Positions 3,039 through 53,306 of a DNA stretch of 64,000 nt are shown here, piece by piece. The DNA is taken from positions 32,001 to 96,000 of the IMG/VR virus record IMGVR_UViG_3300034684_000299; one strand, 5' to 3'. The stretch's first letter is position 1. Every line of letters starts with the position of its first letter. Below the pieces are notes generated by a model. The model saw nothing but the letters and a program-made list of their open reading frames with translations, did not search any database and had not been told where the DNA came from. Origin of the DNA: a virus. A program made the position numbers and the translations under genes.

Positions 3039-3092
3039 TATTAGGGGAAAGGAGGGCAAAGCGCATATTTAATAATGCGCTAATTTAAAAAA

Positions 3093-4901
3093 ATGAACAA
3101 ACTAACAGTACAATTACCGTTATTAAAGGACCAATGGGCAGCAACATTACTACAAGCTTTATACAATCAGCATCCATATTTGATTGTAGATTCTGCAAAA
3201 GTTAATATCAATGATTACGCCTTAGACGATGGCGTTATAGGTATAATCTATGTTACTATGCAAAATCATAGATTTGGTATACCTTGTATCATACGTAATG
3301 GTGAGGCGTATCCATTCGATATACTTCTTTTGCCAAATGGTAATGTTGAATTGTTGAATAAAAACAACTACGAAAAACTTATCGCTGAGATATATCAAAT
3401 AGCAACTCCAGCACCTAAACTGGATACTATTGCTGATCTATTCACACCTAAGACTTCTGGACATTTACCAATAGACCAAGTGATGACTTTAGACGAATTG
3501 ACTAAACAATCTTCATATAGAACATTAGTATTCAGTGAATATGACCCAGAAGAGTTTATAAAAACAGCAAAAGAGGTATTCAACGTTTTACCAGATGCCA
3601 TTAAAAAGTTTGCAAAAGATTTGAATTTAAGATACTCTAAAAAGGATGAAGATTATACAGACGATATTACTGAGTTTGAAATTTTGGAAAAAACTGCTGG
3701 ATACCAGTTCATATTCTATAACTTGAACAAGAAAGTCAAAGAATACGTGAAAGGTAAAGGTGGATTAGAAAAGATAGCTGAAAACTTTGATATAAATGAT
3801 GAAGAGTTAGAACTTCTACAAAGAACTAAGTATGCTAAATTCAAAAAGAACGCTACTGATTTCTATATCGACCATGAAATAACTGAAAAACCCAAAATAA
3901 CGATTATAAAGATGGCAGGAGATAAAGAAGTCAGAGACAATGTTGATTTTCTCATAAAACCATCTGAACCTAAAGTTGGTACTAGAATGGTATTTTTTGA
4001 GAAAGGTGCCAACGACGAATTATATTTCACTGAACCTATTTATATCACTAAAGTCGAAAAAGATAAATTAGAAGGATATTCTTCAGAAGGATTTGTGAAG
4101 TTAAAAGAAACAGACAAAAACTTTATAAAAAATGCTGCTGTTCCTGAAAGCAAAACATATCTTTTATCAACTAATGCTTTACCTTTTGAGGCAGTTGACA
4201 AAAAACAATACGATGTTAGCAACAAATATCAGCAATTGTTAAAGACCGCATCCTACAATAAATTAAAAATACATAAAGCACCTTCTGCTTATATAGTAGA
4301 TGATAGTAAAATCCTTAAAAATTTAAACGATGTTGATGTTTATCTTATGAAAGAAGCAGGATTTGATGCCAGAGACACTTTGTATATAAATCAACATTTA
4401 GAATCACTTCCACCTTCTAATAGCATTGTTATAAATTACAAACACAATGACCATGAAAAAATTGCAGAGCATAATGACAACACAATTGAAATGTCTAAGG
4501 AAGATAAAAAAGCTTTAATAAAATTTGCAACTTACTATTTGCAAGCGACTGAACAAGGATTATTAAAAATTGCTCAAACTCCAAAAGAAACAAAATCTCA
4601 AGAACAAGTAATGACTAGCCGTGAATTACTCGATTATGCATTAAGACAAGATCCAGACGAAGCGATAGCATACAATTTATTAGAATTAACAGCCAGCAAA
4701 AAATTGAATATATCAGAGCTTATAATGCAATATCAATTATTAGAGAATTCCAAAAATGTATTGATCAAATTACTACTTCAAGCAGAAGTTGGACTCTTAC
4801 CAATAAAGTTTGATATTGTACGCAATGCTTTAATAGCTTTAGAAAATTTATTATTAAGCATTGAATATCTTGTTAATCAGAATCAAACCACGGAAAAATA
4901 A
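3093..4901 (+). CDS. Putative inner-head/virion protein with about 12 K-x-A motifs
   Basis: FIKTAK, LEKTAG, LEKIAE, IIKMAG, FIKNAA, LLKTAS, LMKEAG, LIKFAT, LLKIAQ and others; hairpin-split RBS. Confidence 0.45.
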   Translation: MNKLTVQLPLLKDQWAATLLQALYNQHPYLIVDSAKVNINDYALDDGVIGIIYVTMQNHRFGIPCIIRNGEAYPFDILLLPNGNVELLNKNNYEKLIAEIYQIATPAPKLDTIADLFTPKTSGHLPIDQVMTLDELTKQSSYRTLVFSEYDPEEFIKTAKEVFNVLPDAIKKFAKDLNLRYSKKDEDYTDDITEFEILEKTAGYQFIFYNLNKKVKEYVKGKGGLEKIAENFDINDEELELLQRTKYAKFKKNATDFYIDHEITEKPKITIIKMAGDKEVRDNVDFLIKPSEPKVGTRMVFFEKGANDELYFTEPIYITKVEKDKLEGYSSEGFVKLKETDKNFIKNAAVPESKTYLLSTNALPFEAVDKKQYDVSNKYQQLLKTASYNKLKIHKAPSAYIVDDSKILKNLNDVDVYLMKEAGFDARDTLYINQHLESLPPSNSIVINYKHNDHEKIAEHNDNTIEMSKEDKKALIKFATYYLQATEQGLLKIAQTPKETKSQEQVMTSRELLDYALRQDPDEAIAYNLLELTASKKLNISELIMQYQLLENSKNVLIKLLLQAEVGLLPIKFDIVRNALIALENLLLSIEYLVNQNQTTEK

Positions 4902-4907
4902 GGGGCG

Positions 4908-5687
4908 ATGCTAATGTTACCATACAACAGATTTTTGATAGCTTTAAAAAGTCTGGGATATAACTACAGGGAAATTCAATCAATATTGAATTCATATAAA
5001 TTACCCAACATGACAGAAGAGCATTATATAGGTATAAATGCCAACGATATTGATGATTGGGTATTAAAATTAATTGATGGATGGAAAGATAAAGATAAAT
5101 ATAAGACGGTATTCTATAAGATGTTAAACAATGCGATGATGAGATATAAACTTATGGCATTGTTAACCGCTAATCCTAATACAGAAGAATTAGCTAAAAC
5201 GATGAAACAAAATGGATTAGAAGAAATAGATGAAGAATCATTGGAATTATTCAAAAAATGGTTTTGGGACATTGATGAGACTAAAGAAAAAGATTGGGAT
5301 TATTTTTTTGAACACAACAGGTTCCCTGGGCAAGTATTGGAAAAGATACAAAATGCATTATACGGAGACAAGATGTTGACATATTATGAAAATGGAATAT
5401 TCCCGGAACCTGACCCAAATGCTTTTTTAAATGGAATTGTTGCGGTAGCATACCAAAAATTAAGAGATATGTTAGCAGACCCTGTCAAACGTAACAGGGT
5501 TAATTATAATACGGCTGTAAAACATGCTATGAAAGCTTTAGAAGTTTTAACCGCTAGAGAAAAGACAGGGACGTCAGAGGTTGATCCTGCTGATATAATA
5601 AATATCTTAGAAAAAAAATTGAAATTTAAAAATATGAAAGATTTTAAAAATATTAATGATTTGCAAGAGAAGGATGAGAAAAAATGA
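4908..5687 (+). CDS. Hypothetical protein translationally coupled to the RNA polymerase gene (start may be ATG 4914)
   Basis: ORF track; ATGA overlap with the RNAP start. Confidence 0.6.
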   Translation: MLMLPYNRFLIALKSLGYNYREIQSILNSYKLPNMTEEHYIGINANDIDDWVLKLIDGWKDKDKYKTVFYKMLNNAMMRYKLMALLTANPNTEELAKTMKQNGLEEIDEESLELFKKWFWDIDETKEKDWDYFFEHNRFPGQVLEKIQNALYGDKMLTYYENGIFPEPDPNAFLNGIVAVAYQKLRDMLADPVKRNRVNYNTAVKHAMKALEVLTAREKTGTSEVDPADIINILEKKLKFKNMKDFKNINDLQEKDEKK

Positions 5688-8600
5688 TTCTAACCGGATA
5701 TGCTGAAAAAACGAATGAAGAGTTTAAAAGTGCCATAGAAAGAAAAATAAAAGAAATGTTTCCCATACAAGCTGGAGACAGAGAAATTGTACTTGAAAAA
5801 TTAACAGTCACTGAACCAAAAGAAGCCTATGATGCCGCTGCTTTTGAACAGAAAAAGCTTAATCTTTCATCTATTTCTTTTGATGTCAGTATGAATTTAA
5901 AATTGAGGAACACAAAAACCAACGAAACTATAGATTCTAAAGTTATAAAATTAAAGATTCCTGCTGCTACTATTAAGAACGATTTTTTGGTCAAAGGTAA
6001 CGAGTATGTAATACCAACACAATTGCGATTGAAACCGGGAATATACACTAGGCGAAAATCAAATGGCGAATTAGTTGCTGAATTTAAAATGGAAAAGGGT
6101 GAAAACTTTAAAATAGTTCTCGACCCTAATAAAAACGCGTTGAGAATTGATCAACAGGGCAGACAAATTAAATTGATACCTTTCTTAAAAGGAATGGGCA
6201 TAACAGAAGAACAAATGCGTAAAGCATGGGGAAATGAGGAGTTCAATGTTCTGAATCAAGTTGATGGTCAAGGTGATCCCCAAAAAGAAGTTCAAAAAGT
6301 AATGGAAAAGGACTTTTCTAATAGATACAGATGGTTATGGGAAGATATAGACCCTAATCTTCCACCAAATGAAAAAGTCAAAAAATACATGGAGAAAACA
6401 GAGTTAGATAGTAAAATAACGAATATCACACTTGGGCAAGAAATAAGTAAAGCAGATGTCAACGCTATTTTAGCTGCCGCCGCTAAATTAATTCAAATTT
6501 CTAAAGGTGAAGCAAAAGAATCAGGTATGAGTTCTATAGTTTACAAAAAAGCTCATAAACCATACCATCATATCGAAGAAAAATTAGACGATATGAAAAA
6601 TGTTTTGAACAGTACTGTGAAAAAAAGAATGTTGCAATTCGATGATTTACATAAAATAATCTCCCCTAGTTATACACAAAAGATATTTGATAATTTTTTT
6701 CTTACCTCTTCGGCTTCACAGTTAGCAGACCAGCCTAATGTGATTGGACTTTTATCTAACATGGGAAAAGTTACTCTAACAGGAGAGGGAGCTATTGAAG
6801 AAGATAGAGCTGTAACTGAAGCGGATAGAAGTGTAGACCCTTACCATTTTCTTTTTTTAGACCCTGTACATACACCTGAATCTGAAAAAATTGGTTCTAA
6901 CCTCTTTGCTACAATAGGTTCTCTTGGCTCGATTACAAACGATACGAGTCAGGAATTAAAAAGTGTTTTTTATAATTTAAAAACAGGGCAAAATGTAACA
7001 TTAGCTCCTATCGATGTGTATGATAAAGTTGTTGCTTTTCCAAATGAAATCGAAGGTAAAAAACCAACAGGCAAAACGGTAAAAGCACTTCATAAAGGTG
7101 AAATAAAAAATGTCAAAGATACAGAAGTTGATTTAATCCCTTTAAACGCATCTGAAATGTTTGATTTTTCTTCAAATTTAATACCATTCTTATCTTCAAT
7201 AAATGGAAATAGAGCTATGATGGCTTCAAAACATCTAACTCATGCTATTCCTTTAGTAGACCCAGAACCACCTTTAGTTCAAAATATTGTACCAAATACA
7301 TCTAGAACCTTTGAGAATACAGTAGGTTCTGCTGTAAGTATGTTTTCTCCTGTGGATGGTACGGTTGTTTCTGTTTCCGATAAAAATATAAAAATTAAAG
7401 ATAATAAAGGAAAAATTTACAATGTATCTTTATTGGATTATATTGAAACAGGTGAAAGTACCTTTTTGAAACATATTCCTGTTGTCAAAAAGGATGATAA
7501 AGTTAAAAAAGGACAATTAATAGCAGATTCCAACATGTCCAAAGGTGGTACCTTAGCAATCGGTAAAAATTTAAAGGTTGCTTATGCTCCATACAAAGGA
7601 TTTAACTATGAAGATGGCATAGTAATTTCTGATACAGCTGCTAAAAAATTAGCTTCTGAACATTTATATAATTTTAAAATAGAAATTCTTCCTGGCATGG
7701 TATTTGATAAAAACAAATTCCGTTCTTATTTTCCTAATGAATATACAACACAGCAGTTAAACAATCTAGATGATACAGGTATAGTAAAAAAAGGAACAAA
7801 ATTGAAATATGGAGACCCAGTAGCAGTTTTATTGAAAGAGCGTTCTCAATCAATCCACGAAAAATTAATAGGTGATTTGCATAAACAATTGATGTCTCCG
7901 ATGATAAATGCTTCTGTTGAATGGGACAAAAACGCAGAAGGAGAAGTAGTAAGAGTTGTTAAATCTTCTTCATTAATACAGGTTATGGTAAGAACAGTCG
8001 AACCCATTGTTGCTGGAGATAAAATAGTTGGAAGACACGGTAATAAAGGTACCGTGGCACAAATAGTACCTGAAAAAGATATGCCTGTTGATGAAAGTGG
8101 AGAACCTATAGAAGTAATATTGAACCCTGCTGGTATACCATCGAGAATCAATCCTTCACAAGTTTTAGAAACGGTAGCAGGTAAAATAGCTAAAAAAACG
8201 GGTACACAATATAATATAGAAAATTTCAAACCAAATACGAATTATTTGGAACAATTAAAAACTGATTTGAAAAAATATAATTTAAAAGATACAGAGTATT
8301 TAACTGATCCAAATCTTGGTAAATTAGAAAAACCTGTATTGACAGGATATCAATATATGGTAAAACTTCCCCAACAAGTTGAAGTTAAAACTAATATAAG
8401 AGAAGAATGGGGATACGATGCAGATAAAAGGCCTCTAAGAGGTAGTCAAGAAGGTGGAGGATCAAGGGCATTGGACCCTCTTACCGCTTATTCTTTAATA
8501 GCTCACGACGCAAGAGCTAATATGAGAGAAATGGCTACGTATAAAGCGGAGCAAAATGATGAATTCTGGTTGGCAATAGAAAACGGACAAATTCCACCTG

Positions 8601-11600
8601 CTCCTAAACCCACATTTGCTTTCAATAAGTTTGTTGGTTATTTGAAAGGGGCTGGAATTGATGTAACAAAATCTGGCAATAATTTACAATTAGCCCCTAT
8701 GAAAGATAAAGACATCTTGTCTATGTCCAATGGAGAAGTCAAAAAACCAGATACGTTGAAAGCATACAATTTAACACCTGAAAAAGGTGGAATTTTTGAT
8801 GTTGACGTATTAGGCGGATTACAAGGAGATAAATGGGGACACATAAATTTGGTAAGTAGTATACCAAACCCAACTTTTGAAAGGCAAATCAAAAAAATAC
8901 TTGACTTGTCTTCTAGAGAATATGAACAATTGCTTAAAGGGGAAAAAGGCGTAGATAATAATGGAAATATTGTTGATAAAAATCAGGCCACTTATTTTGC
9001 CGGTGATGCTTTTAAAAAATTATTGTCTAAAATTAATCCAGATCAGGAATTAAGAAAAATACAAGAAACATTAAAGCAAAACGATAATTTACGACCAGAA
9101 GAAATAGATTCTTTAATGTACAAAGCTAAAATCTTTAGAGGTATGAAAGAAACTGGGACCAAACCTGAAGATTATGTAATTAGTCATATACCAGTTATAC
9201 CACCTAAATATAGACCGGTGTACCCTTCACAAGACGATAAGTTTCTTGTAGTTTCACCAATTAATCATTTGTATAAAGATACATTATTACTGAATAATCA
9301 AATAAAAGATGCTGAACAAAGTAAAACATTAACTAAAGAAGAAGAATTAAAATTAGTAGGTGATTTATATAATCAAGTAAAAGCTTTAGTCGGAATTGGT
9401 TCACCTCTCCCTGGCACTCAATCTTCAAAAGAAGGTGCCTCTGGAGCTTTAGAATTTTTAGCTGGAACTCAAAGCCCTAAAAGTGGATATTTTCAATCCA
9501 GACTATTCAGTAAAAGGCAAGAATTGTCTTCGACAGCCGTTATACAGAATGGACCTGATTTAAATTTAGATGAAGCAGCTATTCCCGAAGAGGCTCTTTG
9601 GAATTTGTATAGACCTTTTTTGATAAAGAAACTTCAAGAGAATGGATACAACATCAAAGAAGCTAAAGAAATGATAAAAAATAAAGACCCAATGGCAAGA
9701 AAAATGTTAGAAGAAGAGATTGAAAGTAGACCTGTTTTGTTAAACAGAAGTCCTTCATTACATAAATTTTCCGTTATGGCATTTAAACCTAAAATTACAC
9801 AAGATCAAGTAATAAGATTAAATCCTAATGTTGTAGCAGGCTTTAATGCTGACTACGATGGCGACAGTATTTTTTCCTCTGTTTATGCGGCTTTTTTCAA
9901 CGACGACCAAGATACTCAAAATTATAAATTATTAGGAGAAAACGATATGCCATTTGAAGAATTATCCTTAAGAACAACGTTTGGACTAATTAATTTAAAG
10001 GATTTTCCTAGAATTGAAAAAAGCAAAAGGGTAGAAGGCAACAAAGAAATTTATAAAGTTCCTAAAAATGTAAGGATTTTGGCTTCAAAAGATGGAAAAA
10101 CTGGATATTATCCAATTGAAAGTTTCAGTATACATAAAAATCTAGAAATGGTAGAAGTTAAAACCAACACGTCAAGAACCATTCATTGTTCTAAAGACCA
10201 TTCCCTAGTAACGGTGGATGAAAATCTCAACTATATCAATCATGTTCCAGAAAAATATCTAACTATTCCTAGATTGAGGAAACCTGTTGATACTTACACT
10301 GCCGAACATATTGTTCTTGAAGATAAAGGAGAAAGTAATTATAATTTTAATTTTAAAATTCCTTTAGACGAAAAATGGGGTTATGTTAATGGCGTGTATA
10401 TAGGTGATGGTTGGGTAGATCATATCCAAAGTAAATATAGCATGAATTTAGCCAATGTATCTGAAGAATTATTTAAAGAAATCCAAAATATTTTTAATAG
10501 TTATATTAATGATGAAAACAAGATACATTTTTACATCAAAAATAATCCACATGATTTCGATGGATTTAAAAGTTTTTCAAGAAAAATAACATGGCATTCA
10601 AAAACTTTTCACAATTATTTTAGTTCTTTAGGACATAGAGCTCAAAACAAACATTTGCCAGAATATTGGCTTATTGCTCCTGAAAATTTTAAATGGGGTT
10701 TGTTGGCTGGTTTAATAGATACTGACGGGACAATAAGTTATAATCAGACAGAAAACGGCATTCAGAGAATGTGTATAAATTATTACACAACTTCCAGAAC
10801 TTTAGCTTATGAAATAGCTGCATTAGCTGCAAGTTTAAATTTAACAGCTTCAGTATCTCCAACATTCACACCCAAAGGAGAAGAAGCTTGGACAATTATA
10901 TTTAGTCAAGAATCAATTGTAGATATACAAAATAAATTAAATTTACGTGTTGTTGATAAAAAAGAAAAATTGCAAAAGTATATTCCTAACAAAAATTTTG
11001 CACGTAATAAATATACTCCTAAATTAAGCAAATCTAGACTAAATGAATTGAGAAAAGCAATAGGATCTCCTAGATTAAGGAATAGAAAAGGTGAGTTAAT
11101 AACGGAAGATCCTATTGAACAGTCTAAAATAAAACACAAAAAAAGTTTGAATGTAATCTGTACAAGAGTATCCAATAACAATACTGCTTTAACCAAACAA
11201 ACAGCTTTAAAAATTTTTGATTTGAATTTAGATATATTTGAAAAAGATCCTTTCTGGAAAAAATGGAAAGAGATGGTATTAGATGAAAATATTGAATGGG
11301 AATTAATTACAGATATAAAACCTATACCAGAGATAACTGAAGCTTATGATTTAACAGCAGGACCTTTGTATACTATGATTACAGAAAATGGGTTTATTGT
11401 TCAAGATACAATGGCCATCCATGTTCCAGTAACTGAAGAGGCCAGACAAGAAGCTTTACGTATGACACCTTCAAAAAACCTATTCAGACCTGGAAGTAAA
11501 ACTCTTATGAATACATTGAGATTAGAATACAATGGAGGTATTTATAATTTAACAGCCCCTCCTGAAAATGATAACGTACTTCCTATTCAAGTAGGAGATT

Positions 11601-13519
11601 ACAAAACATTATTTGAACAATTAAGAAATAATAAGGTTAAATACAACGATTTAGTAAAATTCAATGGCAAAGTTTCGACTGTAGGCAGGCATTTAGTAAA
11701 TGAATTGTTCCCTGAGAAATACAGAGATTACAATAACCAATGGAATGGAAAGAAAATAAATAGTACATTGGAAGCTATTGCAAAAGAAAATCCTGATAAA
11801 GCTGTAGAAATATTGAATAGATTAAAAGAATTATCTAGATATGCTATGTACAAAATACCAATAACCGTATCTTTGAATGATCTAGAAATTCCAGAAGCAA
11901 AAGCAATAAAAAATGAAATAAAAAAAATTGACTCATCTTCTAACAAATCGAAAGAAGAAATTATCAAAGAATTAAATCAAGTAGATAATCAAGTTTCAAA
12001 AATGATAGATGAACTATCTAAAAAAAAGGCTAATGAAAACGCATTTTTAATGATGAAAGATTCAGGAACAAAAGGCTCAACTTCGCAAATAAAACAATTA
12101 TTAATAGGACCTGTCAGTGTACAAAATAGTTTTGGTGAAACAATACCAATAGCATTAGGTAATAGTTATTCTGAAGGATTAACACCTGCCCAATATTTTG
12201 CAGCCTCATACGGAGCTAGAATGGGTATGTTAGCTAAAAAATTGGGTGTATCTGAACCTGGAGCTTTAAATAAGGAAATATTAAATTCTGTATCAGACCA
12301 AATAGTTTCTCAATACGATGATCCAAACAATCCAGGTATACCCATTAAAATATCAGAAGAAGATGAAAAAGATTTAGTAGGAAGAGTTTTAGCTAAAGAC
12401 GTATTGGATGAAAGAGGCAGAGTATTAATAGCTAAAGGTGAAATTTTAACACCTCATGCCTTATCATTAATAAAGAATCATAAAATAGATTATATAAATA
12501 TAAAATCTCCTCTTACTGATACTACACCAATAGGTTTAAGTGGCACAAGTTTCGGTTTAGATGAAAATAGTAGAATTCCAAGTATAGGAACTAATCTAGG
12601 TGTTAAACAGACACAAGCTATAACAGAACCATTATCTCAAGGAGCTTTAAACTTTTTTCATACAGGTGGAGTTACTTCTACAGATTCAACAATGTCCACA
12701 TATGAAGCTATAAATACAATGACCAAATTAACAGAGACATTTCAAAGCAAATCAGCAGTATTATCGCTAGTAACTGATACAGTTGAAAAGATAAACAAAA
12801 AACCGTTAGGTGGTTATGAAGTAACAATAGGTGGAGTAAAACATGATATCCCTACAGGATTAGAACCAAAAGTCAAAGTGGGAGATAAAGTTAAAAAAGG
12901 TGAACCCATTTCTACTGGAATGGTTCATCCTGAAGAAGCTTACAAAGCAAGAGGATTGCCTTATGCTGAACAAATTATGGCTAAACAGTTCAGAGATGTT
13001 TTAAAACAGGATCTCAATATAGATTCCGCAAGTATAGAAACATTGGTTAAAGGATTGATTTCAACTGCACAGATATTAGACCCAGGAAATCATGCTGATG
13101 AATTCAAAATTGGTGATGTTGCCAACAGTCAATATATAGATTATTTGAATAGAAAAGATACCCTCACAACCAAAAAAGTAAATTCAGATTTAATAGGTTG
13201 GGTTGTTGGGGATAATTATGGTTATATAAATATAGGAACACCAATTGACGAAAATATATTAAAAGAGTTACAAGAGATGGGATTAAAAGAAATACAAGTT
13301 TACAAGCAAAATATAAAGTTTCAACCGATAATCAAAGGAACAACGGTTTTACCACATAAAAAGTTTGATTGGTTACATAGAGCTACATTCAGAAACCTCA
13401 AACAAGTATTTCCAGAAGAAGCTGCTTTTGGTGGTAAAGCTAATATTCATGGACCAAGTCCATTGACAGCATGGACATATGGAGCTGAAATAAGGAAAGA
13501 TGAAAAAGGGCAATATTAA
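5684..13519 (+). CDS. Single-chain DNA-directed RNA polymerase, fused beta plus beta' (intein-containing; about 2097 aa after splicing)
   Basis: Beta motifs KGNEYVIPTQL, HTPESEKIG, NRAMMASKH, GFNYEDGIVIS, GDKIVGRHGNKG, NPAGIPSRIN. Beta' motifs WGHINL, IPVIPPKYRP, LLNRSPSLH, NADYDGD|TMAIHVP, bridge helix GLTPAQYFAASYGARMG, trigger loop QAITEPLSQGALNFFHTGG. Confidence 0.95.
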   Translation: MILTGYAEKTNEEFKSAIERKIKEMFPIQAGDREIVLEKLTVTEPKEAYDAAAFEQKKLNLSSISFDVSMNLKLRNTKTNETIDSKVIKLKIPAATIKNDFLVKGNEYVIPTQLRLKPGIYTRRKSNGELVAEFKMEKGENFKIVLDPNKNALRIDQQGRQIKLIPFLKGMGITEEQMRKAWGNEEFNVLNQVDGQGDPQKEVQKVMEKDFSNRYRWLWEDIDPNLPPNEKVKKYMEKTELDSKITNITLGQEISKADVNAILAAAAKLIQISKGEAKESGMSSIVYKKAHKPYHHIEEKLDDMKNVLNSTVKKRMLQFDDLHKIISPSYTQKIFDNFFLTSSASQLADQPNVIGLLSNMGKVTLTGEGAIEEDRAVTEADRSVDPYHFLFLDPVHTPESEKIGSNLFATIGSLGSITNDTSQELKSVFYNLKTGQNVTLAPIDVYDKVVAFPNEIEGKKPTGKTVKALHKGEIKNVKDTEVDLIPLNASEMFDFSSNLIPFLSSINGNRAMMASKHLTHAIPLVDPEPPLVQNIVPNTSRTFENTVGSAVSMFSPVDGTVVSVSDKNIKIKDNKGKIYNVSLLDYIETGESTFLKHIPVVKKDDKVKKGQLIADSNMSKGGTLAIGKNLKVAYAPYKGFNYEDGIVISDTAAKKLASEHLYNFKIEILPGMVFDKNKFRSYFPNEYTTQQLNNLDDTGIVKKGTKLKYGDPVAVLLKERSQSIHEKLIGDLHKQLMSPMINASVEWDKNAEGEVVRVVKSSSLIQVMVRTVEPIVAGDKIVGRHGNKGTVAQIVPEKDMPVDESGEPIEVILNPAGIPSRINPSQVLETVAGKIAKKTGTQYNIENFKPNTNYLEQLKTDLKKYNLKDTEYLTDPNLGKLEKPVLTGYQYMVKLPQQVEVKTNIREEWGYDADKRPLRGSQEGGGSRALDPLTAYSLIAHDARANMREMATYKAEQNDEFWLAIENGQIPPAPKPTFAFNKFVGYLKGAGIDVTKSGNNLQLAPMKDKDILSMSNGEVKKPDTLKAYNLTPEKGGIFDVDVLGGLQGDKWGHINLVSSIPNPTFERQIKKILDLSSREYEQLLKGEKGVDNNGNIVDKNQATYFAGDAFKKLLSKINPDQELRKIQETLKQNDNLRPEEIDSLMYKAKIFRGMKETGTKPEDYVISHIPVIPPKYRPVYPSQDDKFLVVSPINHLYKDTLLLNNQIKDAEQSKTLTKEEELKLVGDLYNQVKALVGIGSPLPGTQSSKEGASGALEFLAGTQSPKSGYFQSRLFSKRQELSSTAVIQNGPDLNLDEAAIPEEALWNLYRPFLIKKLQENGYNIKEAKEMIKNKDPMARKMLEEEIESRPVLLNRSPSLHKFSVMAFKPKITQDQVIRLNPNVVAGFNADYDGDSIFSSVYAAFFNDDQDTQNYKLLGENDMPFEELSLRTTFGLINLKDFPRIEKSKRVEGNKEIYKVPKNVRILASKDGKTGYYPIESFSIHKNLEMVEVKTNTSRTIHCSKDHSLVTVDENLNYINHVPEKYLTIPRLRKPVDTYTAEHIVLEDKGESNYNFNFKIPLDEKWGYVNGVYIGDGWVDHIQSKYSMNLANVSEELFKEIQNIFNSYINDENKIHFYIKNNPHDFDGFKSFSRKITWHSKTFHNYFSSLGHRAQNKHLPEYWLIAPENFKWGLLAGLIDTDGTISYNQTENGIQRMCINYYTTSRTLAYEIAALAASLNLTASVSPTFTPKGEEAWTIIFSQESIVDIQNKLNLRVVDKKEKLQKYIPNKNFARNKYTPKLSKSRLNELRKAIGSPRLRNRKGELITEDPIEQSKIKHKKSLNVICTRVSNNNTALTKQTALKIFDLNLDIFEKDPFWKKWKEMVLDENIEWELITDIKPIPEITEAYDLTAGPLYTMITENGFIVQDTMAIHVPVTEEARQEALRMTPSKNLFRPGSKTLMNTLRLEYNGGIYNLTAPPENDNVLPIQVGDYKTLFEQLRNNKVKYNDLVKFNGKVSTVGRHLVNELFPEKYRDYNNQWNGKKINSTLEAIAKENPDKAVEILNRLKELSRYAMYKIPITVSLNDLEIPEAKAIKNEIKKIDSSSNKSKEEIIKELNQVDNQVSKMIDELSKKKANENAFLMMKDSGTKGSTSQIKQLLIGPVSVQNSFGETIPIALGNSYSEGLTPAQYFAASYGARMGMLAKKLGVSEPGALNKEILNSVSDQIVSQYDDPNNPGIPIKISEEDEKDLVGRVLAKDVLDERGRVLIAKGEILTPHALSLIKNHKIDYINIKSPLTDTTPIGLSGTSFGLDENSRIPSIGTNLGVKQTQAITEPLSQGALNFFHTGGVTSTDSTMSTYEAINTMTKLTETFQSKSAVLSLVTDTVEKINKKPLGGYEVTIGGVKHDIPTGLEPKVKVGDKVKKGEPISTGMVHPEEAYKARGLPYAEQIMAKQFRDVLKQDLNIDSASIETLVKGLISTAQILDPGNHADEFKIGDVANSQYIDYLNRKDTLTTKKVNSDLIGWVVGDNYGYINIGTPIDENILKELQEMGLKEIQVYKQNIKFQPIIKGTTVLPHKKFDWLHRATFRNLKQVFPEEAAFGGKANIHGPSPLTAWTYGAEIRKDEKGQY
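9866..11407 (+). mobile_element. Intein with LAGLIDADG homing endonuclease (514 aa, aa 1395-1908)
   Basis: Interrupts NADYDGD|TMAIHVP. Ser1 (SIFSSV), block B IHCSKDHSL, LAGLIDADG motifs GYVNGVYIGDGW and GLLAGLIDTDG, block F AYDLT, C-terminus ENGFIVQD, +1 Thr. Confidence 0.9.
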
Positions 13520-41880: not shown

Positions 41881-41897
41881 TATTACCCATCAAAAAA

Positions 41898-44196: not shown

Positions 44197-44204
44197 TCAT
44201 TCGG

Positions 44205-44244
44205 CGCAGGAAACCCCATCCTTTAAAGGGTGGAGAGGATGCAC
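44205..44244 (+). mobile_element. IS200/IS605-type end-like palindrome (solitary remnant)
   Basis: CAGGAAACCCCATCCTTTAAAGGGTGGAGAGGATGCAC resembles the AGGAA-hairpin(CTTTA loop)-AGGATG(T)CAC right ends of IS605/IS1341 elements. Confidence 0.4.
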
Positions 44245-44284
44245 CTTCCCTCCTTTCCTGTTAAAATTGCAAAAATGACGCAAA

Positions 44285-44848
44285 TTACATCCCAGGAGCT
44301 GATGGAACATCACTCATCATTCTAGCTGGAACACTAGCTTGTTCAATTGTAGGTGTTGCTGTATTTGCATTCATTTGAGCACTGTTTAAAACAGCTTTAC
44401 CTTCTTCAAATTTTGTTGCTAATTCTGGATCGTTTTGAACAATAGGTTCTAATCCATTTTGAATAACGTATGCAGCAAATTCGCCGGGCAATAATTCATC
44501 TGATAATGTTTTTAATTCTTGGACTAGTTGAGCTCCTGTATCAATTTCTATTGTAGGCACTTGTGTAGGAGTTCCCGCATTAGGATCTACATTTTCTGTT
44601 GATATAGGTTGAGCATTGCTTGGCGTTGCTGATGGAATAGCCGCATCTGCTACTACTTGATCGGTTAATTCTTGAGCGGCCTTAACCATGCCTATTCTTT
44701 GCCCCATACCAAAAATTAAACCTTGTCTGAACATCTCTGCATCTTCAGCCGTTTTAACCAATCCGTTAGTTAATACTGAAGCTTCCTTAATAAACTCATT
44801 AGTCTCTGCTATTTTTTCAAGTTCTTCTACGTTCCATTTTCTTTCCAT
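44285..44848 (-). CDS. Head-associated protein with N-terminal K-x-A cluster
   Basis: LEKIAE, FIKEAS, LVKTAE, MVKAAQ in the first 60 aa. Confidence 0.5.
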   Translation of the reverse strand: MERKWNVEELEKIAETNEFIKEASVLTNGLVKTAEDAEMFRQGLIFGMGQRIGMVKAAQELTDQVVADAAIPSATPSNAQPISTENVDPNAGTPTQVPTIEIDTGAQLVQELKTLSDELLPGEFAAYVIQNGLEPIVQNDPELATKFEEGKAVLNSAQMNANTATPTIEQASVPARMMSDVPSAPGM

Positions 44849-46275: not shown

Positions 46276-46279
46276 CTCG

Positions 46280-46675
46280 TCACAAACCTTTAGCCATTAA
46301 GTTAGAATACTGCATCAACATTAGCGGATCAATTCCACCATAATTAAATGCTTTTTTAATTATCTCTTCTACCGCATATGGAGACATGTACAAATTTGGT
46401 ACAAGTTGTGCAACTGTCAACAAATATTTTCTTAATTCTTTTTTATCCCATTGAGGATATTTTTGACTCAACAATCTCTCCATCTTTAATATATCGTCAG
46501 TTGTAACTTTGATTCTAGGAGAAGCTCGACCTTTAAGATTAAGTGTACCAGTTAATCCAGTTGCAAATCTATCGGCTCCTTCATATATTTGTTCTACAAA
46601 AGAAACATATGGGAACCCGCTAGAATCAACTTGCTCAGGAGGTGAAGGCGTATTTTGATTTGTATTTTCAGGCAT
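46280..46675 (-). CDS. Hypothetical virion-module protein
   Basis: ORF track; hairpin-split RBS. Confidence 0.55.
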   Translation of the reverse strand: MPENTNQNTPSPPEQVDSSGFPYVSFVEQIYEGADRFATGLTGTLNLKGRASPRIKVTTDDILKMERLLSQKYPQWDKKELRKYLLTVAQLVPNLYMSPYAVEEIIKKAFNYGGIDPLMLMQYSNLMAKGL

Positions 46676-46732
46676 TTTTTTTAATAGATCTCAAAGGATT
46701 CAAGACCTATTGTTCTACCCTCCTTAATTGTA

Positions 46733-47233
46733 CTAGTATTTTATGTTCTTTCCAACAACGAGCATATCGTAGGCAGCTTCTTTAATTAACTCTTCTGGTG
46801 TTCCAAAAAGTTCAATATGAGCATGCAACCTACCTCTTTCACCTGTATATCCTTCTCTTTCCATATGTTCAGCAGCTGTTTTCTCCATTATGTCTATTGC
46901 ATTTGCTACTTCTTGTAATTCATAATCTTTCAAATTTTTTGCCAAATATTCAGCAACTTTAGTCAAATAACCAGTTTCCTCGTACATCTTTTTTGCATAT
47001 TCAGCATCTTTTTCCATCATATCTTGTAAATCTTCTGTGGTGTTTCTATAAGTTTTCAACATATCCAAAGCTGTTAAAACATTTACATATGCTATCTTGA
47101 GTAGATCTCTATCTGTGTATTTGTTCTTTTGTATCTCCTCATTTAAAGCTGCCGTCTTTTCTAAATGCTTATCCTCCACACCAAAATATCTTGGCATCTC
47201 TTCTGCTACCTTCAATAATCCATCTCTTACCAT
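46733..47233 (-). CDS. Head protein with seven K-x-A motifs in 166 aa
   Basis: LLKVAE, LEKTAA, LLKIAY, MEKDAE, LTKVAE, MEKTAA, LIKEAA. Confidence 0.5.
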   Translation of the reverse strand: MVRDGLLKVAEEMPRYFGVEDKHLEKTAALNEEIQKNKYTDRDLLKIAYVNVLTALDMLKTYRNTTEDLQDMMEKDAEYAKKMYEETGYLTKVAEYLAKNLKDYELQEVANAIDIMEKTAAEHMEREGYTGERGRLHAHIELFGTPEELIKEAAYDMLVVGKNIKY

Positions 47234-47248
47234 TTTCTTATAACCTCC

Positions 47249-48919
47249 TTATAATTCTTCTTTTTCGTAATAGTCTGGAATAAATGTTTCCGTTGATGCT
47301 CCTAATATACCTCCGATGATACTTGAAGTCGTTTTACCTTTACCAACTTTTTTCTTAACATCTTGATAAATATCTTCTTCTGTTATTTTACCACTGTTTA
47401 ATTTGTTTATAGTTCTATTACTTAACCCTGTAGTTCGTAACTCTTTTTGATATTTATTCAGTTTCGCTTGTGCCCCACCTGCAGCAATCAAGCCACCTCC
47501 TAACGCTCCTAAAGTTACATTCCTTGCTCTTGCACCTAGATACTGTTTTCTAACTTCTTTCAATCGCTGTTCTTGTTGCTCTTTAGTTATTTTCCCTTCT
47601 TCGTACATCTCGTTTATATTTCTAACTCTGTCTTTGTATGCCCTGTTTTCTTTACCGCCAGTAACAGCTGTCGAAGTCAAAGCACCAGCGGTTGCACCTT
47701 GTATTCCTACTTGCAACGGTATCTTCTTTGATTTAGCCATAAATTGATCTATAGAAAATTCTACAATTTTTTCGCCTGCTGTTGCAGCTATCTTTTCAAA
47801 GTATTTTTCATCCATTAATCCTTTGTCAACTGCGGTTTTTAACAACAATAATTTATTTTTAATTTCATCTGTAATAGATGCTACCTTCTCATAATTTTTC
47901 ACAACACTATGTACATTATATAATATGTCTTTTTGATCTTCGGTTATACTTGGCGTCTCCAACAACATCGCTATTTTTTCTTGTTGTTTTCTGACTTTTA
48001 ATTTTAATTCTGCATTTCTTATATCATTTTCTAACTTATCAGCATAATAATTAACATTTGCTATTTTAGTTAATGTTTCATATAAATTCTCTGACCCTAT
48101 ATTTTCTACTTCTTCTTCTAATGCTTTTTCATAAGCCAATTTTTTAAATCCTTCTGAAACGTTTATTCCTTCAATTATATATTTTAAATTTTCTTCGGAT
48201 ACTTCTTTTAAACTGGCCTCTTTTCTTATAAATGTTTTTTTAACTTTATCAATAAGTCTTCTAACTAAACTCTTCGCTTTCTTTTTATCTTCATATTTAA
48301 TATTTTCTTTTTCTATTTCATTCAATAAAATTTTTTCCAATTGTTCAGGAGGTATTTTCCCCATTATTTTCTTCATATTATTTTCTATTTCCATCAGTTT
48401 CATTCTCTGTTGCATATTGGTTACCCTTATTTCGTCTTCAGCTATCTTTAAAAATTCTACAGCAGAATCTACAGACTTTTTAGAAATAGAATCATAAAAA
48501 TAGTCTTTTGGTTCTTCTTTAGTAATATTCAAAGAAGCTAATTTTGTCTGTACGGGTTCTATCCATTCTTGGGATTTAGACCAATCTATATCATCCAACA
48601 ACCAATCCTCTGGATGTATACTGTTAGAAGAAACTTCGCTTTTAACTTCCTCTATTTCTATATTTTCTTGCATTTTTTTCAACCAATTTAATACATTTTC
48701 TAATCTTATTATTGGAAATTCAACCTTGTTTTGTTCAAACAATTTTAGTTGAATAAGTTGATTAGTTCTTTCTATCAAACGTTTAATTTCATTGTAATTC
48801 AAACCTCTTTCAATAGATATCTCAGCTACTATTAAATCCGGTGATTTGCTAGTATCAGCTAAATATATTTTTGCAACATTTGTAGCCAAAATATCGTTAC
48901 TCAACTTTGTCATATTCAA
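47249..48919 (-). CDS. Putative ejection protein: K-x-A-rich propeptide-like region plus glycine-zipper C-domain
   Basis: About 9 K-x-A motifs ending at FEKIAA, followed by GATAGALT, GALGGGLIAAGG, IIGGILGA. Confidence 0.45.
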   Translation of the reverse strand: MNMTKLSNDILATNVAKIYLADTSKSPDLIVAEISIERGLNYNEIKRLIERTNQLIQLKLFEQNKVEFPIIRLENVLNWLKKMQENIEIEEVKSEVSSNSIHPEDWLLDDIDWSKSQEWIEPVQTKLASLNITKEEPKDYFYDSISKKSVDSAVEFLKIAEDEIRVTNMQQRMKLMEIENNMKKIMGKIPPEQLEKILLNEIEKENIKYEDKKKAKSLVRRLIDKVKKTFIRKEASLKEVSEENLKYIIEGINVSEGFKKLAYEKALEEEVENIGSENLYETLTKIANVNYYADKLENDIRNAELKLKVRKQQEKIAMLLETPSITEDQKDILYNVHSVVKNYEKVASITDEIKNKLLLLKTAVDKGLMDEKYFEKIAATAGEKIVEFSIDQFMAKSKKIPLQVGIQGATAGALTSTAVTGGKENRAYKDRVRNINEMYEEGKITKEQQEQRLKEVRKQYLGARARNVTLGALGGGLIAAGGAQAKLNKYQKELRTTGLSNRTINKLNSGKITEEDIYQDVKKKVGKGKTTSSIIGGILGASTETFIPDYYEKEEL

Positions 48920-48997
48920 TTTTCCCAGCCTCCTCTTTTCAATTATATCATTGTCAAAATTTTCATTGGTTCAATATGAATCCCACTAGTTAACTAT

Positions 48998-50623
48998 TTA
49001 TTCCAACTCGGAATCATTCACAGGTTCTTGTGTTATTCTAGCGTCATATGGATTGATCCTTCCAGTGCCTAAAGAAGCTGCAAGATAGCAAAAATTTAAA
49101 GCATGAAATGCATCATCAGGTTTACCTTTTTCATGAGTAAAATATATTTGTCTAAGATTCTCGTTGTAATCTTGATATATATTCAAAAAATCATTTGCAA
49201 ACTCTTTCCATACTTCGTATTTTGGAAATAATATTCTTCGCTCTTTTATACGCTGCATTGTATTACTCATAGATTGTGTTCTACTTACTATATACTTGTA
49301 ACCTTCCCTATCCCATTTGATCAATATTTTTAAATTTCCATTGAGGGAGAATTCCAACACAGGGTCCATATTTGATTGTTGTTTCAATAAATCTTTCCTC
49401 AACCTAGCATTTATTCCACCAGCACCTATACCCCAATCTACACCTATTAAACTTACTCTGAACTTTTGAGCTAACTTCAATATATCCTCATGTACATAAT
49501 TCATATCAGATTCCTTACCCTTGTACTTTTTCATATACACTACTCTAAATATCCCTTTTGGATCATATCCCCCTATAACCAAAACAGTATAAGAATCCAA
49601 TTGACTGTCTTTAGATGAATACGTTGCCCAATCTATACCCATGTACAAAGGTTTGCCATAAAAAATTTCTGAATTGTATCCAGTATCCATATCTCTATTT
49701 TCAGAAGCCAATCTTAACATCTCTTCGTTCATCGGCATGTTGGCATCTTCATACGGTAATCCCAACACTTCATTGTAAAACTTACCCTTTGGATAATTAC
49801 GTCTTCTGTAATTAATATCATCCCAATCTACCGTCGGAGATAAAACCTGTGGTATTCTCATCCCAATAAAATACTTATCTGTTGGATCTGCCATATTAAC
49901 CCATTCACCGTTTCTTGTATCAAGCTCTTTATTGCATGAAGGATTACTACATATCAATCCATTTGGGCCTAAATTATCCTCATCAATAATATTCCATTTT
50001 CCACAATGCGTACATTTGATTGCATATTCTGACATAGTACTTTCTTTCCATGTATCCTCAATAGGATTTTGAAATCTCTTTGGAGTTCCTGTATAAAAAC
50101 GATATTTGTATTCTGAACCTGATAATGTTTCGGATATAACTGGAATAGTATCCGTTAATAAATCTTGTATTTCATCTAATCCAATCATATCAGCAGCTAT
50201 ACCTCTTATATGGTCAGCAGTAAGGTAAGCACTTCTTAGTATTATCTGCGACCCTGTACTAAAATCTTTTTGAAATACATTGTCAACTGAAAATTTTGGA
50301 TTCATATAATATTTTTGTATATATGGTGAATACTGTATAAAATGCTTCAATTTTTGAGACGAGAAAACTTTAACTTGATTCATAGTAGGATTGACATGTA
50401 AAATTTTAAAAAACGGTTTGGTAGTAGCATCTACTACATATTTAGCCGCCAACGTTAAAGATTTTCCAACTTGCCTTCCACATTTTGCTAAAAATCTGGG
50501 ATGTTCTAAATCAAAAAAAGGTCTAAAATAATCACGCCCTTCCAATGTAAAAGGTTTGTTGTTATATTTCAAAATTGACTCGGCAAATTCCGACCTATAC
50601 ATTTCTAAAGTTTTTTTGGACAT
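48998..50623 (-). CDS. terL: Terminase large subunit
   Basis: Walker A CGRQVGKS, Walker B IGLDEIQD, CxxC..C..C insert, RNase H-like MGIDW and PDDAFHA. Confidence 0.9.
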   Translation of the reverse strand: MSKKTLEMYRSEFAESILKYNNKPFTLEGRDYFRPFFDLEHPRFLAKCGRQVGKSLTLAAKYVVDATTKPFFKILHVNPTMNQVKVFSSQKLKHFIQYSPYIQKYYMNPKFSVDNVFQKDFSTGSQIILRSAYLTADHIRGIAADMIGLDEIQDLLTDTIPVISETLSGSEYKYRFYTGTPKRFQNPIEDTWKESTMSEYAIKCTHCGKWNIIDEDNLGPNGLICSNPSCNKELDTRNGEWVNMADPTDKYFIGMRIPQVLSPTVDWDDINYRRRNYPKGKFYNEVLGLPYEDANMPMNEEMLRLASENRDMDTGYNSEIFYGKPLYMGIDWATYSSKDSQLDSYTVLVIGGYDPKGIFRVVYMKKYKGKESDMNYVHEDILKLAQKFRVSLIGVDWGIGAGGINARLRKDLLKQQSNMDPVLEFSLNGNLKILIKWDREGYKYIVSRTQSMSNTMQRIKERRILFPKYEVWKEFANDFLNIYQDYNENLRQIYFTHEKGKPDDAFHALNFCYLAASLGTGRINPYDARITQEPVNDSELE

Positions 50624-50624
50624 C

Positions 50625-50813
50625 TTATACCCCTTTTTCTATCGCTAATTTACCGTCATCAGTAATTTTGCCTTCAGATGTAATATATCCATATTCTAAA
50701 AGTCTATTCTTGTATTTAATATGTTCTGGTAACAACATGCCGTTATTCTTTTCAAAAGCTTCTTTTAAAACCTGTACATATTCTTGACCTATGTCCCCAT
50801 GTTTTTCTAACAT
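50625..50813 (-). CDS. Small hypothetical protein
   Basis: SD AGGAGG; wHTH-like tail LLEYGYITSEGKITDDG. Confidence 0.55.
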   Translation of the reverse strand: MLEKHGDIGQEYVQVLKEAFEKNNGMLLPEHIKYKNRLLEYGYITSEGKITDDGKLAIEKGV

Positions 50814-50825
50814 AAAGAATGCCTC

Positions 50826-51215
50826 CTAGTAGACCCCTACCATTTTTCTTATACGTTTAACCAATTCCTCATCTTTTTTGTTAATAAAATCTCCTTCTAC
50901 AATGTCATATAATTCGTATTTTGACGAAAATAGATCAAAAAATCCTACTGTATACTCACTATCTTCTTCTTTTGAAAACAAATCTACTATATTCGTTCGC
51001 ATTAATATAGGTATTAAATATCCTTCATCTACTTCTATTTCACTTTGTTGCTTTGGATTCAATATTTTAAAAGATTTTTGGGTTATTTTAAAAATTATGT
51101 TTTTATGTTCTCCTTTCAATTCATAACTATCCGGTATTGAACCTACAAAATACTTTATATAATTACTGTTTGAGTTATTCTCTTCAACATTAATTGTGTA
51201 TTTCAAAGGTATCAT
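50826..51215 (-). CDS. Hypothetical protein (start may be TTG 51206)
   Basis: ORF track; SD spacing favours the TTG. Confidence 0.55.
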   Translation of the reverse strand: MIPLKYTINVEENNSNSNYIKYFVGSIPDSYELKGEHKNIIFKITQKSFKILNPKQQSEIEVDEGYLIPILMRTNIVDLFSKEEDSEYTVGFFDLFSSKYELYDIVEGDFINKKDEELVKRIRKMVGVY

Positions 51216-51226
51216 CTCCCTAAAAA

Positions 51227-52108
51227 TTATTTTTTGCCTTTTAATTTATATAAAATTTTTATCAATGAATCATAATTTAAACTTTCAACACCTTGTTCTT
51301 TTGCTAACTTCTGAATTTCATCTATCAATTCTTTATCTTCACCCAACATCTTACCTAAATCAGGCACCTTTATATTGATATGTTGTAACAACTCATTACT
51401 ATCTACATCCTTGTTTAATTGCCCTGCAACATTGAATATATTGTTTATAGAATTATCCGTACCAATACTAGTTAAACCTCCAAGTAAATTCTTTATCATA
51501 CTTGCCGTTTGATCTATACTTTGTGGATTTTCTATTAACCTGCCTATTTCTTCTTGTAATTTAGTTAGTGTTTCATCACTTCGCCCTTTCATATAGGAAT
51601 AATCAAATTCCTCCAAATGTCTTATCATAGCTTGTATAGTTGCTCTACCCCATTCATCGTTGTAAACTCTTATCTTAAAAAAATCTGGGCAATCTTTAAA
51701 TTCGCTGTATTTAATAACATATTTCAATTCACCAGTTGCATCAGTTTTAGTTTCTAACTCTTTTGTTTTATTAATATTTATGGTTACCTTTGCTTCTTTC
51801 CTTTCAGGTGCCTTTAAATACAACTGTGTATCTTGATTTTCATATACAGTCAATCTAGTCGGATACCTTTCCCAAGTTCTATAAAAAGCTCCATTTTTAA
51901 AAAATATATTATTTAATTGTGTTTCTATCTCTTTTTTAGGAGCATTAACAGCTACTACAACCGTAGCATCATCAGTTTCAGGAAAAGCGAGATTGTTAGA
52001 ATTCCATACTGAATATGGTTTTCCAGAATCTTTATTGACTAACACTAAACTATATACAGTATCAGGTTTTAATTGATCAACAGGAACTACATCGTATACT
52101 TTTATCAC
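51227..52108 (-). CDS. Hypothetical virion-module protein
   Basis: ORF track; SD GAGGAGGT. Confidence 0.6.
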   Translation of the reverse strand: MIKVYDVVPVDQLKPDTVYSLVLVNKDSGKPYSVWNSNNLAFPETDDATVVVAVNAPKKEIETQLNNIFFKNGAFYRTWERYPTRLTVYENQDTQLYLKAPERKEAKVTININKTKELETKTDATGELKYVIKYSEFKDCPDFFKIRVYNDEWGRATIQAMIRHLEEFDYSYMKGRSDETLTKLQEEIGRLIENPQSIDQTASMIKNLLGGLTSIGTDNSINNIFNVAGQLNKDVDSNELLQHINIKVPDLGKMLGEDKELIDEIQKLAKEQGVESLNYDSLIKILYKLKGKK

Positions 52109-52121
52109 AATTATTACCTCC

Positions 52122-53273
52122 TCAATTCACGGCTACAAATATCAACAAATCTACATCAACAGCTGAACTTTGTGGAAAATCATATGCATACATTTTTATA
52201 TCGTATCCATTCCAAGCTACCATAACATAATTTGGAGGTGCATTTCTTTCAGTACCTACATTTATACCTATTAATTTTTGTTGAACCAGTATGCCTAAAA
52301 TATCACCAAAAGTTCTGTTGTTTTCTAACATAGAATTGTTTAAAGATAATGAAAATTGAACGTATCTACCTCTGCTAACAGAAGCATTTATTTTTACTAC
52401 TTTTGCTAATTGATTACTTCTTATCTTCTTAGTCGTTGCATTCATTGAAGAACCTGTTTTAAATCCGTTTATGTTATGTGGATACTGTAAATTCAGATAT
52501 GCTTCAGGTCTACCTACGTCTATCGTATTAGTCGCTTCTATATCGTAAACGTCTACATATATATAATTGGATAATGGTATAGGTTCTTCAAAGGTTAAAA
52601 ATTTTGATAAAGCTTCTTCTTTTGGATAATACAAATCATCATGGTTGTGTTCTTTTGGAGAAAAAGAACTCTGGGTATATATATTGCCATTAACATCTTT
52701 TAAAGCGGTTGTATCTTCTACAATGTCATTTTTTTTGTAATAATCAGAACCATGGTTATGTTGTTTAAAAGCTAGATCTTGTACCCTTACTCCATCAATC
52801 TCTACTGCATTAGGAACTATATCATCCTTTTTGTAATATTCAGGATGTTCATGTTCTTTTCTAGCAAAGGTAGAATAATCAACCCCTGATAGTTTTTCTG
52901 TAACAGTAATTACGTCATCTTGTTTAACATAATCATGTGTATGTTCTGCAGGTGCTAAATCAGTAGGTTTATAATTATTTACACCATCCGTTATTGTGTA
53001 TGCTCCGTCTATTACTTCACCTTTTACAACATATTCTGAATGTATATGGTCTTTCATTGCAAACTCTGATAATTCTTTATTCAATATTCTATATGTATAA
53101 TTAGAATACGGCACCATATATTTAGATACCGCTGGTAATAACATTTCTGTCACTTTAAAAGAATTTGCTACATTGATCACTTCCGACACATTCAATGCTG
53201 AATCCTTTGAAGCTTGAAGAATATAATTCAATATTTTAACTTTCTGTGCTTCCTCATTTATTAATCTTTTCAT
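52122..53273 (-). CDS. Tail fibre-like protein with five H-x-H repeats
   Basis: DHIHSEY, EHTHDY, EHEHPEY, QHNHGSDY, EHNHDDLY; hairpin-split RBS. Confidence 0.6.
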   Translation of the reverse strand: MKRLINEEAQKVKILNYILQASKDSALNVSEVINVANSFKVTEMLLPAVSKYMVPYSNYTYRILNKELSEFAMKDHIHSEYVVKGEVIDGAYTITDGVNNYKPTDLAPAEHTHDYVKQDDVITVTEKLSGVDYSTFARKEHEHPEYYKKDDIVPNAVEIDGVRVQDLAFKQHNHGSDYYKKNDIVEDTTALKDVNGNIYTQSSFSPKEHNHDDLYYPKEEALSKFLTFEEPIPLSNYIYVDVYDIEATNTIDVGRPEAYLNLQYPHNINGFKTGSSMNATTKKIRSNQLAKVVKINASVSRGRYVQFSLSLNNSMLENNRTFGDILGILVQQKLIGINVGTERNAPPNYVMVAWNGYDIKMYAYDFPQSSAVDVDLLIFVAVN

Positions 53274-53306
53274 AAAATTAAGTGCCTAAGCACTTTGCCT
53301 CCTTCC

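Follow-up and report, generated by a model that had tools for sequence, protein, structure and literature searches.

Can a ribosome binding site (RBS) work when its Shine-Dalgarno (SD) sequence lies far upstream of the start codon and a hairpin fills the gap, and how would a phage come to carry many such sites? This question is raised by a 64,000-nt stretch (the window; positions 32001–96000) of the phage record IMGVR_UViG_3300034684_000299 (G000; 185,437 bp, 30% GC), in which genome coordinates equal window coordinates plus 32000. An initial annotation had pointed to seven genes with a stem-loop between a strong AGGAGG and the AUG. All seven were found where they had been placed (those from 38350 to 53273 on the minus strand), with AGGAGG and stems folding as described (Table 1). 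We propose that these sites are functional split RBSs that probably arose as scars of IscB-encoding ISC elements, members of the IS200/IS605 superfamily.

Table 1. Split RBSs and the RNA polymerase (RNAP) gene in the window (window coordinates; descending ranges on the minus strand).
Feature	AGGAGG	Hairpin	ATG or extent	Strand	AGGAGG-to-ATG distance (nt)	Remark
Split RBS, 602-aa gene upstream of RNAP gene	3050-3055	3060-3081, 7 bp	3093	+	37	
Fused beta-beta' RNAP with intein			5684..13519	+		~32% identity to RNAPs of Vibrio phage D181 and Salmonella phage Arash
Split RBS, 210-aa gene after RNAP gene	13531-13536	13539-13554, 6 bp, UUCG	13563	+	26	
Probable split RBS, gene after DnaB	27483-27488	27493-27521, GGTGC/GCACC	27530	+		Start without orthologue N-terminus support
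Split RBS, tail-sheath-like gene	38387-38382	38376-38358, 8 bp	38350	-	31	
Split RBS, 142-aa gene	41434-41429	41425-41401, 9 bp	41393	-	35	
Split RBS, 265-aa gene	44254-44249	44245-44203, full-length IS200/IS605-type imperfect hairpin	44196	-	52	
Split RBS, 131-aa gene	46724-46719	46711-46683, 13 bp with three G-U pairs	46675	-	43	
Split RBS, 383-aa gene	53303-53298	53295-53280, 6 bp	53273	-	24	

The seven genes are real cases of a larger set. A scan of genes lacking a canonical SD added eight sites (genome ATG 10586, 16284, 28335, 155074, 166820, 171828, 182712, and 183385), and a second scan, extended to starts masked by a GTG within the stem, added the probable site 27530 in the replication block, within the interval 14287–30324 that had been thought free of clear cases. 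This brings the total to 16 genome-wide, 15 firm and one probable. At 27530, AGGAGG is followed by 4 nt, the GGTGC...GCACC hairpin, and 8 nt before the ATG; open reading frame (ORF) callers choose GTG 27494, located within the stem.

Across the split sites, the SD lies 24–55 nt from the AUG and the unpaired residue amounts to 8–15 nt, close to the 8–14 nt originally proposed. Hairpins of 16–43 nt are flanked by a 5' linker of 2–7 nt and, in 15/16 sites, by a 3' linker of 6–8 nt, which matches ordinary AGGAGG-to-start spacing in this phage (6–8 nt in 66/80 cases, mode 7). A canonical SD is missing from all 15 firm sites, the duplex energy in the canonical window ranging from -4.5 to +1.1 kcal/mol versus -11.6 to -16.6 kcal/mol for the distal SD. 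According to fold predictions, 14/15 spacers are more stable than their own dinucleotide shuffles at P<0.05 (mean z -3.4; P 0.002–0.026 for the seven window sites initially described), and most stems should stay folded at 55–60 °C. The G-U counts previously assigned to the stems proved correct, and the 46675 hairpin folds with -10.4 kcal/mol on the mRNA strand compared with -4.0 on the other. A basal helix of the type RRYGY, a motif picked post hoc, is shared by 10/15 of the spacer hairpins and by 0/84 terminator-like hairpins.

That the AUGs of the window sites are apparently the true starts, and the SD-hairpin modules derived, follows from comparison with the syntenic sister phage G001 (43–77% amino-acid identity at the split-RBS genes), which has a canonical SD at all 15 counterparts. 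Its N-termini align from Met1 in 13/15 cases, including all seven initially described window genes, and from residue 6 in another; the remaining one (155074) is an uncertain orthologue. In a more distant clade, five minus-strand window genes likewise have canonical RBSs. Since canonical RBSs serve these start codons in G001 and the junctions there are shorter, those of G000 being 12–68 nt longer in 13/13 comparable cases, the modules were inserted. At several sites the old SD is weakened or lost upstream: at 41393 a weakened ancestral SD is still present within the upstream gene, at 53273 it is gone, and genome site 10586 is taken up below. G001 itself carries a single split RBS, at a gene whose G000 counterpart has an ordinary RBS, and an outgroup phage carries four on other genes, so far as these genomes go indicating a labile trait within the clade.

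Comparison of strains that are 82–99% identical revealed changes at 9/232 paired versus 20/209 unpaired positions (P=0.02), and at 165/1100 third codon positions in the same comparisons. All four stem changes outside the remodelled upper stem of 183385 preserve pairing. The 3093 leader is identical in a 97% strain (and G001 is canonical at the same Met); in a 91% strain, the 13563 stem is unchanged while its UUCG loop is replaced by GAAA and the 5' linker is 2 nt shorter; in an 82% relative, the 38350 stem is retained with a loop 3 nt longer; and in a 90% strain, one G-U pair of 46675 has become A-U. The stems thus appear to be under selection as RNA. The compensatory pair change between the 13563 and 53273 helices, which the initial annotation had noted, does not add to this, since it spans different genes and hence reflects paralogy rather than orthologous covariation. 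Taken together, predicted folds, agreement of orthologue N-termini with the ATGs, absence of another SD, and stem retention in strains make the assignment as split RBSs of the T4 gene 25/38 type, proposed at the outset, well supported.

Where the modules came from is indicated by genome ATG 10586, which directly follows IscB 10649–11941, an intact element with omega-RNA and a GTCA end upstream. The element has a subterminal imperfect hairpin and was inserted 5' of its ATG target without duplication. The native SD upstream of it has decayed from GGAGG to GGCGG, and G001 holds the empty site; the insertion boundary is approximate because this empty site comes from a diverged sister genome. A Y1_Tnp gene at genome 107052 provides a TnpA available in trans, whose action on that end is a prediction. 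The target is ATGT, versus ATGG in Petrotoga copies. A scan of Petrotoga as host control found a gene after an IscB element with nearly the same split RBS as that at 10586. The element end downstream of iscB consists of the stop codon, AGGAGG, 1–7 nt, an imperfect hairpin whose 5x5 internal loop is rich in pyrimidines, and 6–10 nt before ATG. TnpA is expected to bind this imperfect hairpin. Intact elements with such AGGAGG-hairpin ends on start codons occur in G000, in Petrotoga (ETF-beta gene), on an Acidithiobacillus plasmid, and in phage G009, where the element sits between a native AGGAGG and ATGA; the native SD can still be recognized ahead of the omega-RNA end in G009 and at the ETF-beta gene. 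G000 harbors four IscB elements, several mini-elements, and a TnpA, whereas G001 with its single split RBS has no full IscB. At the window split sites, no IscB or omega-RNA match was found, which marks them as remnants rather than elements. About 30 Petrotoga genes have canonical SDs except those after IscB and one weak candidate, a sample too small to exclude host-wide use.

These features agree with published target preferences. Kapitonov 2016 (PMC4810608) describes ISC elements as inserting 5' of ATGA or inside GTGA without duplication, with N/ATGA targets (slash, insertion point) and subterminal hairpins. Meers 2023 (bioRxiv 10.1101/2023.03.14.532601) gives TTCAT as the target-adjacent motif of a Geobacillus IscB and reports an orientation bias, iscB elements tending to point the same way as the gene upstream of them because the omega-RNA needs outside transcription.

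Several further observations concern such ends. The weak Petrotoga candidate lies before a class II aldolase gene (L103 18660–18699, dG -5.3). In L120, after an IscB that ends near 2787 and is 86% identical to that of G000, the end hairpin is lost and the next gene has a canonical AGGAGG-7 nt-ATG arrangement. In Petrotoga olearia (L065 11296–11400), a palindromic insertion of ~45 nt occupies the loop of the IscB end hairpin and ATG still follows; the gene that comes next may have been annotated with an incorrect start. A second IscB family, at genome 18855–20460 (L008, outside the window), inserts within the SD (GAG/GTGA), a target also used by a mini-IscB in G001 (~67760–68170) and by several IMG/VR copies.

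The path from a complete element to a short hairpin can be arranged as a graded series. It begins with the empty site in G001 versus the intact element at 10586 (stage i), continues with a two-ended mini-element of ~120 bp before an 836-aa gene in the outgroup phage (GTCAAC end, AGGAGG, decayed hairpin, ATG; stage ii), and leads to the full-length lone end at window 44196 (stage iii). The latter is matched by a profile built from 19 element ends (E=7.8e-4, 16.4 bits, as against at most 8.4 bits in 20 shuffled genomes) and also, by blastn, to a TnpB-element end. The profile is a structure-anchored hidden Markov model; a covariance model derived from element ends aligned with MAFFT contained no base pairs, and we set it aside. 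Genome 182712 retains the two-helix shape with 5x5 loop and 27530 the TTCC before the 3' arm (stage iv), genome 16284, outside the window, is reduced to a GTGGCTG/AGCCAC basal helix and a 6-nt linker, both as in the G009 element (stage v), and 13563 and 53273 have minimal 6-bp hairpins (stage vi). Stages iv–vi are tied to element ends by resemblance, below significant scores, so that an IS origin of the shortest hairpins is what we infer from the gradation.

Other hairpins of this kind were noticed along the way. Window 63644–63696 and genome 116737–116787, 131323–131683, and 151567–151623 hold near-identical TnpB-type end hairpins, the marks of mini-elements that encode no protein and have an ATAA-type flank. 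Another imperfect hairpin of the GGTGC/GCACC kind, located immediately upstream of the split RBS at 183385 (genome 183450–183493; L013), is perhaps an older scar. Pattern scans of IMG/VR returned mostly chance matches or nothing; in unrelated phages there, AGGAGG, a GGTGC hairpin, and ATG without canonical SD precede a 134-aa and a 317-aa ORF (L092 5376–5416; L088 4288–4324), possible further split RBSs.

A mechanism in line with these data would start with elements that insert, co-oriented with the operon, immediately 5' of a target containing ATG and do not duplicate that target, as published and seen here, so that the element often comes to lie between a gene's SD and its start codon. The iscB-downstream end, as it appears in the copies compared, would then bring AGGAGG, 1–7 nt, imperfect hairpin, and 6–10 nt up to the ATG. 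With the hairpin looped out in the mRNA, some 8–15 single-stranded nt would remain, the distal SD and the AUG would be engaged together, and the element's own SD would drive initiation at the original AUG, which would make the insertion tolerable. Subsequently, as the graded series suggests, the native SD would decay, the omega-RNA end and iscB would be deleted, and the hairpin would shrink by internal deletion to a basal helix of 5–9 bp with a stable loop. Once the native SD is gone, the gene would depend on the scar, which may shrink but must remain folded; selection would maintain the stem and the 6–8-nt 3' linker. Given the geometry of the 30S subunit, such a linker would be the single-stranded stretch required to reach from the hairpin to the P site. 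Repeated insertion in an IscB-rich lineage could then have left about 16 scars on long-lived core genes. Start-codon insertion, the SD-hairpin-linker end, loss of the native SD, and stem conservation are the parts of this scheme that appear directly in the sequences compared.

A number of points weigh against it. Direct tests tie only two G000 sites to element ends (10586 as intact element, 44196 by profile), and 16284 was matched by eye; the other 13 go undetected by the profile, including the remaining seven window sites, five of which nonetheless have the basal motif. The motif is absent from 46675 and 38350. No single locus was seen both intact and decayed, genome site 171828 folds no better than its shuffles (P=0.33), four pairs of the 183385 upper stem are broken in strains, and the strain comparisons are few and not independent. 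Some IscB ends lack AGGAGG or lie off start codons; since this holds for other IscB clades, with other targets, the AGGAGG end is a property of some families. Finally, the loss of the hairpin in L120 in favor of a canonical RBS implies that keeping 16 hairpins may need more than drift.

Among the alternatives, a regulatory role is the least improbable. The initial annotation had favored a late-gene translational control layer, and a variant of it would be that the scars have been domesticated into a regulon, in which the basal helix common to the hairpins, next to the SD, is read by a phage or host factor that switches some 16 core and virion genes in concert, the hairpins now acting as operators for an RNA-binding factor or as folding or temperature switches that time virion-gene translation. 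Indeed, 12/16 sites lie in the minus-strand structural blocks and two in the RNAP operon, with none among 64 early-block genes, and the sites are enriched in the structural blocks (12/72 versus 4/115, P=0.0025). Yet equal enrichment is seen in genes shared with G001 (15/109 versus 1/78, P=0.0025), and among these shared genes the structural bias falls to P=0.10. With gene age controlled, the bias thus weakens and a late-gene control layer becomes unnecessary; if the transposon model holds, scars would build up in old, co-transcribed operons. The shared basal helix, the retention of hairpins whose deletion would restore a canonical RBS, and an SD-sequestering fold of the 44196 leader within 0.2–1.3 kcal/mol of the open fold would suit regulation. 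On the other hand, loops and lengths vary freely (UUCG to GAAA), unlike what a protein operator needs, and the modules trace, in our interpretation, to IscB ends; the genes with split RBSs are different ones in relatives; ordinary RBSs precede most structural genes, that of the major capsid candidate among them; and most stems are predicted to stay folded at 55–60 °C. Moreover, no bS21 gene and, in Pfam and PHROG scans that left most phage proteins unannotated, no translational-repressor family was found. We therefore do not retain late-gene control as the primary explanation and regard a domesticated regulon, or another later co-option for tuning, as unlikely.

Somewhat less probable still, in our estimation, is a convergent, non-mobile origin, according to which only two or three sites are IS scars and the other short hairpins stem from local duplication or mutation and are kept to tune protein stoichiometry, with alternating GUGC/GCAC stems favored since these do not pair with the SD. 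It takes little for a short palindrome to arise, 46675 and 38350 are unlike element ends, and the 13 sites missed by the profile would be accommodated. Such an origin would leave unexplained that several sites have a new SD, the former one having decayed upstream, that linker geometry is the same as in element ends, that site number follows IscB load between the sister genomes, and that one short hairpin in the graded series has the basal helix of an element. Least credible, and in our opinion very improbable, is that the distal AGGAGG serves a short upstream ORF (GUG or AUG in the 5' arm, as coupling or decoy) or a ribosome-stalling mRNA stabilizer, with the main gene translated by re-initiation: a GUG or AUG does occur 4–6 nt after AGGAGG in 9/15 spacers and in a few sites the stop codon of the short ORF coincides with or adjoins the main AUG, but canonical spacing in this genome is 6–8 nt, the GUG shifts to 2 nt in a strain and is paired within the stem, frames and stops differ between sites, and five sites have no such codon within 9 nt. 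Intrinsic terminators were rejected as well, as no 3' U-tract follows the stems and the 3' linkers, as read from the sequence, are mostly A-rich and run into the AUG; DNA-hairpin promoters are disfavored by the G-U pairs on the mRNA strand, the tetraloop swap, and perfect SD retention.

As to the encoded proteins, PHROG and Pfam gave no useful name for 6/7 proteins of the initially described sites. The 38350 product is identified with very high confidence as sheath by ESM Atlas features; it has no match by tblastn or in PDB, and its AlphaFold model is poor (pLDDT 37). The lower-scoring ESM Atlas result for the 53273 protein is a lead only. Weak PHROG matches to an endonuclease VII tail and an Arc-like repressor fall in the C-terminal stretch of the 142-aa protein (window 40965–41393), a possible DNA-binding domain. 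The fused RNAP places G000 near multi-subunit-RNAP phages such as D181 and Arash; it has 2611 aa in G000 versus 2097 aa in a close strain (L066 and L067 4159–10452), the shorter form being consistent with absence of the LAGLIDADG intein. Genes for Ro60 (TROVE+vWA), RtcB, and an RNA ligase lie in or near the early region (genome ~110000–123000). The fourth IscB element straddles both contig ends (genome 1–401 and 185150–185437), so that G000 is probably circular or permuted and its assembly broken within the element. The phage was found in subsurface and oil-field samples, and RNA runs contained contigs from a related strain. An IscB protein of G000 falls in a 90% cluster with Petrotoga IscBs, and Petrotoga (Thermotogota) is the likely, if unproven, host. 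Phage contigs binned in a metagenome-assembled genome of Thermoanaerobacterium would speak for Thermoanaerobacterium as host; sharing of IscB with Petrotoga at the level of at least 90% and the oil-field habitat make us favor Petrotoga.

Should the scar model hold, it would offer an evolutionary source for split RBSs, so far a curiosity of few genes, and would explain ATG-targeting IscB elements on essential genes, as the end required by the transposase doubles as a portable RBS. It would also suggest that selfish DNA can permanently rewrite the translation of essential genes. The series of empty, intact, mini, full-end, and minimal-hairpin states, together with about 16 variants, is a natural one for studying how a hairpin between SD and AUG is accommodated by the 30S subunit. 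In IscB-rich genomes, the model predicts that many scars have been overlooked and that starts have been mis-called (here 674 versus 664 aa and 231 versus 210 aa). If the domesticated regulon were true after all, a post-transcriptional network would have been built from IS200/IS605 ends.

Split RBSs and ATG-targeting ISC elements are each already known. In the literature covered, which included few subscription journals, the T4 cases were the only ones found for split RBSs or IS ends that supply an SD, and no paper turned up showing ISC ends as split RBSs or scars accumulating genome-wide; the consulted passages of PMC4810608 and bioRxiv 10.1101/2023.03.14.532601 do not describe an end as SD-hairpin-AUG module or scars as RBSs.

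Among known systems, the T4 genes 25 and 38 are closest, in that a far SD is brought near the AUG by a hairpin, as in G000. Their split initiation regions were reportedly characterized by Nivinskas in 1999 and by Malys and Nivinskas in 2009. The SD lies 27 and 22 nt from the AUG, respectively, which the hairpin reduces to 11 and 5 nt, and the regions are retained in close relatives and absent in distant ones (review PMC3014915). T4 has two such genes and no mobile-element origin in that review, in contrast to G000 with about 16 genes, a common geometry, a traceable transposon source, and a function that is predicted. The window sites would share with ISC transposons a pedigree of GTCA-type 5' end, omega-RNA, RRXRR-HNH IscB, subterminal imperfect hairpin, N/ATGA-type target, lack of duplication, and operon co-orientation, but differ from them as one-ended remnants without iscB or omega-RNA. 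Protein-free IS200/IS605 derivatives of the PATE/REP type are likewise short hairpin remnants of Y1-transposase substrates, and two-ended mini-elements like them are present in G000 and a relative; the split-RBS scars, unlike these, keep one degenerate end, which is fixed at a start codon and whose RNA structure is conserved. IStrons, a name that also appears in PMC4810608, are IS605-family elements combined with a group I intron. They splice out of the mRNA and illustrate another route by which an IS200/IS605 element can achieve near-silent insertion into genes: an IStron removes itself from the mRNA, whereas the element ends in G000 would stay and supply a replacement RBS.

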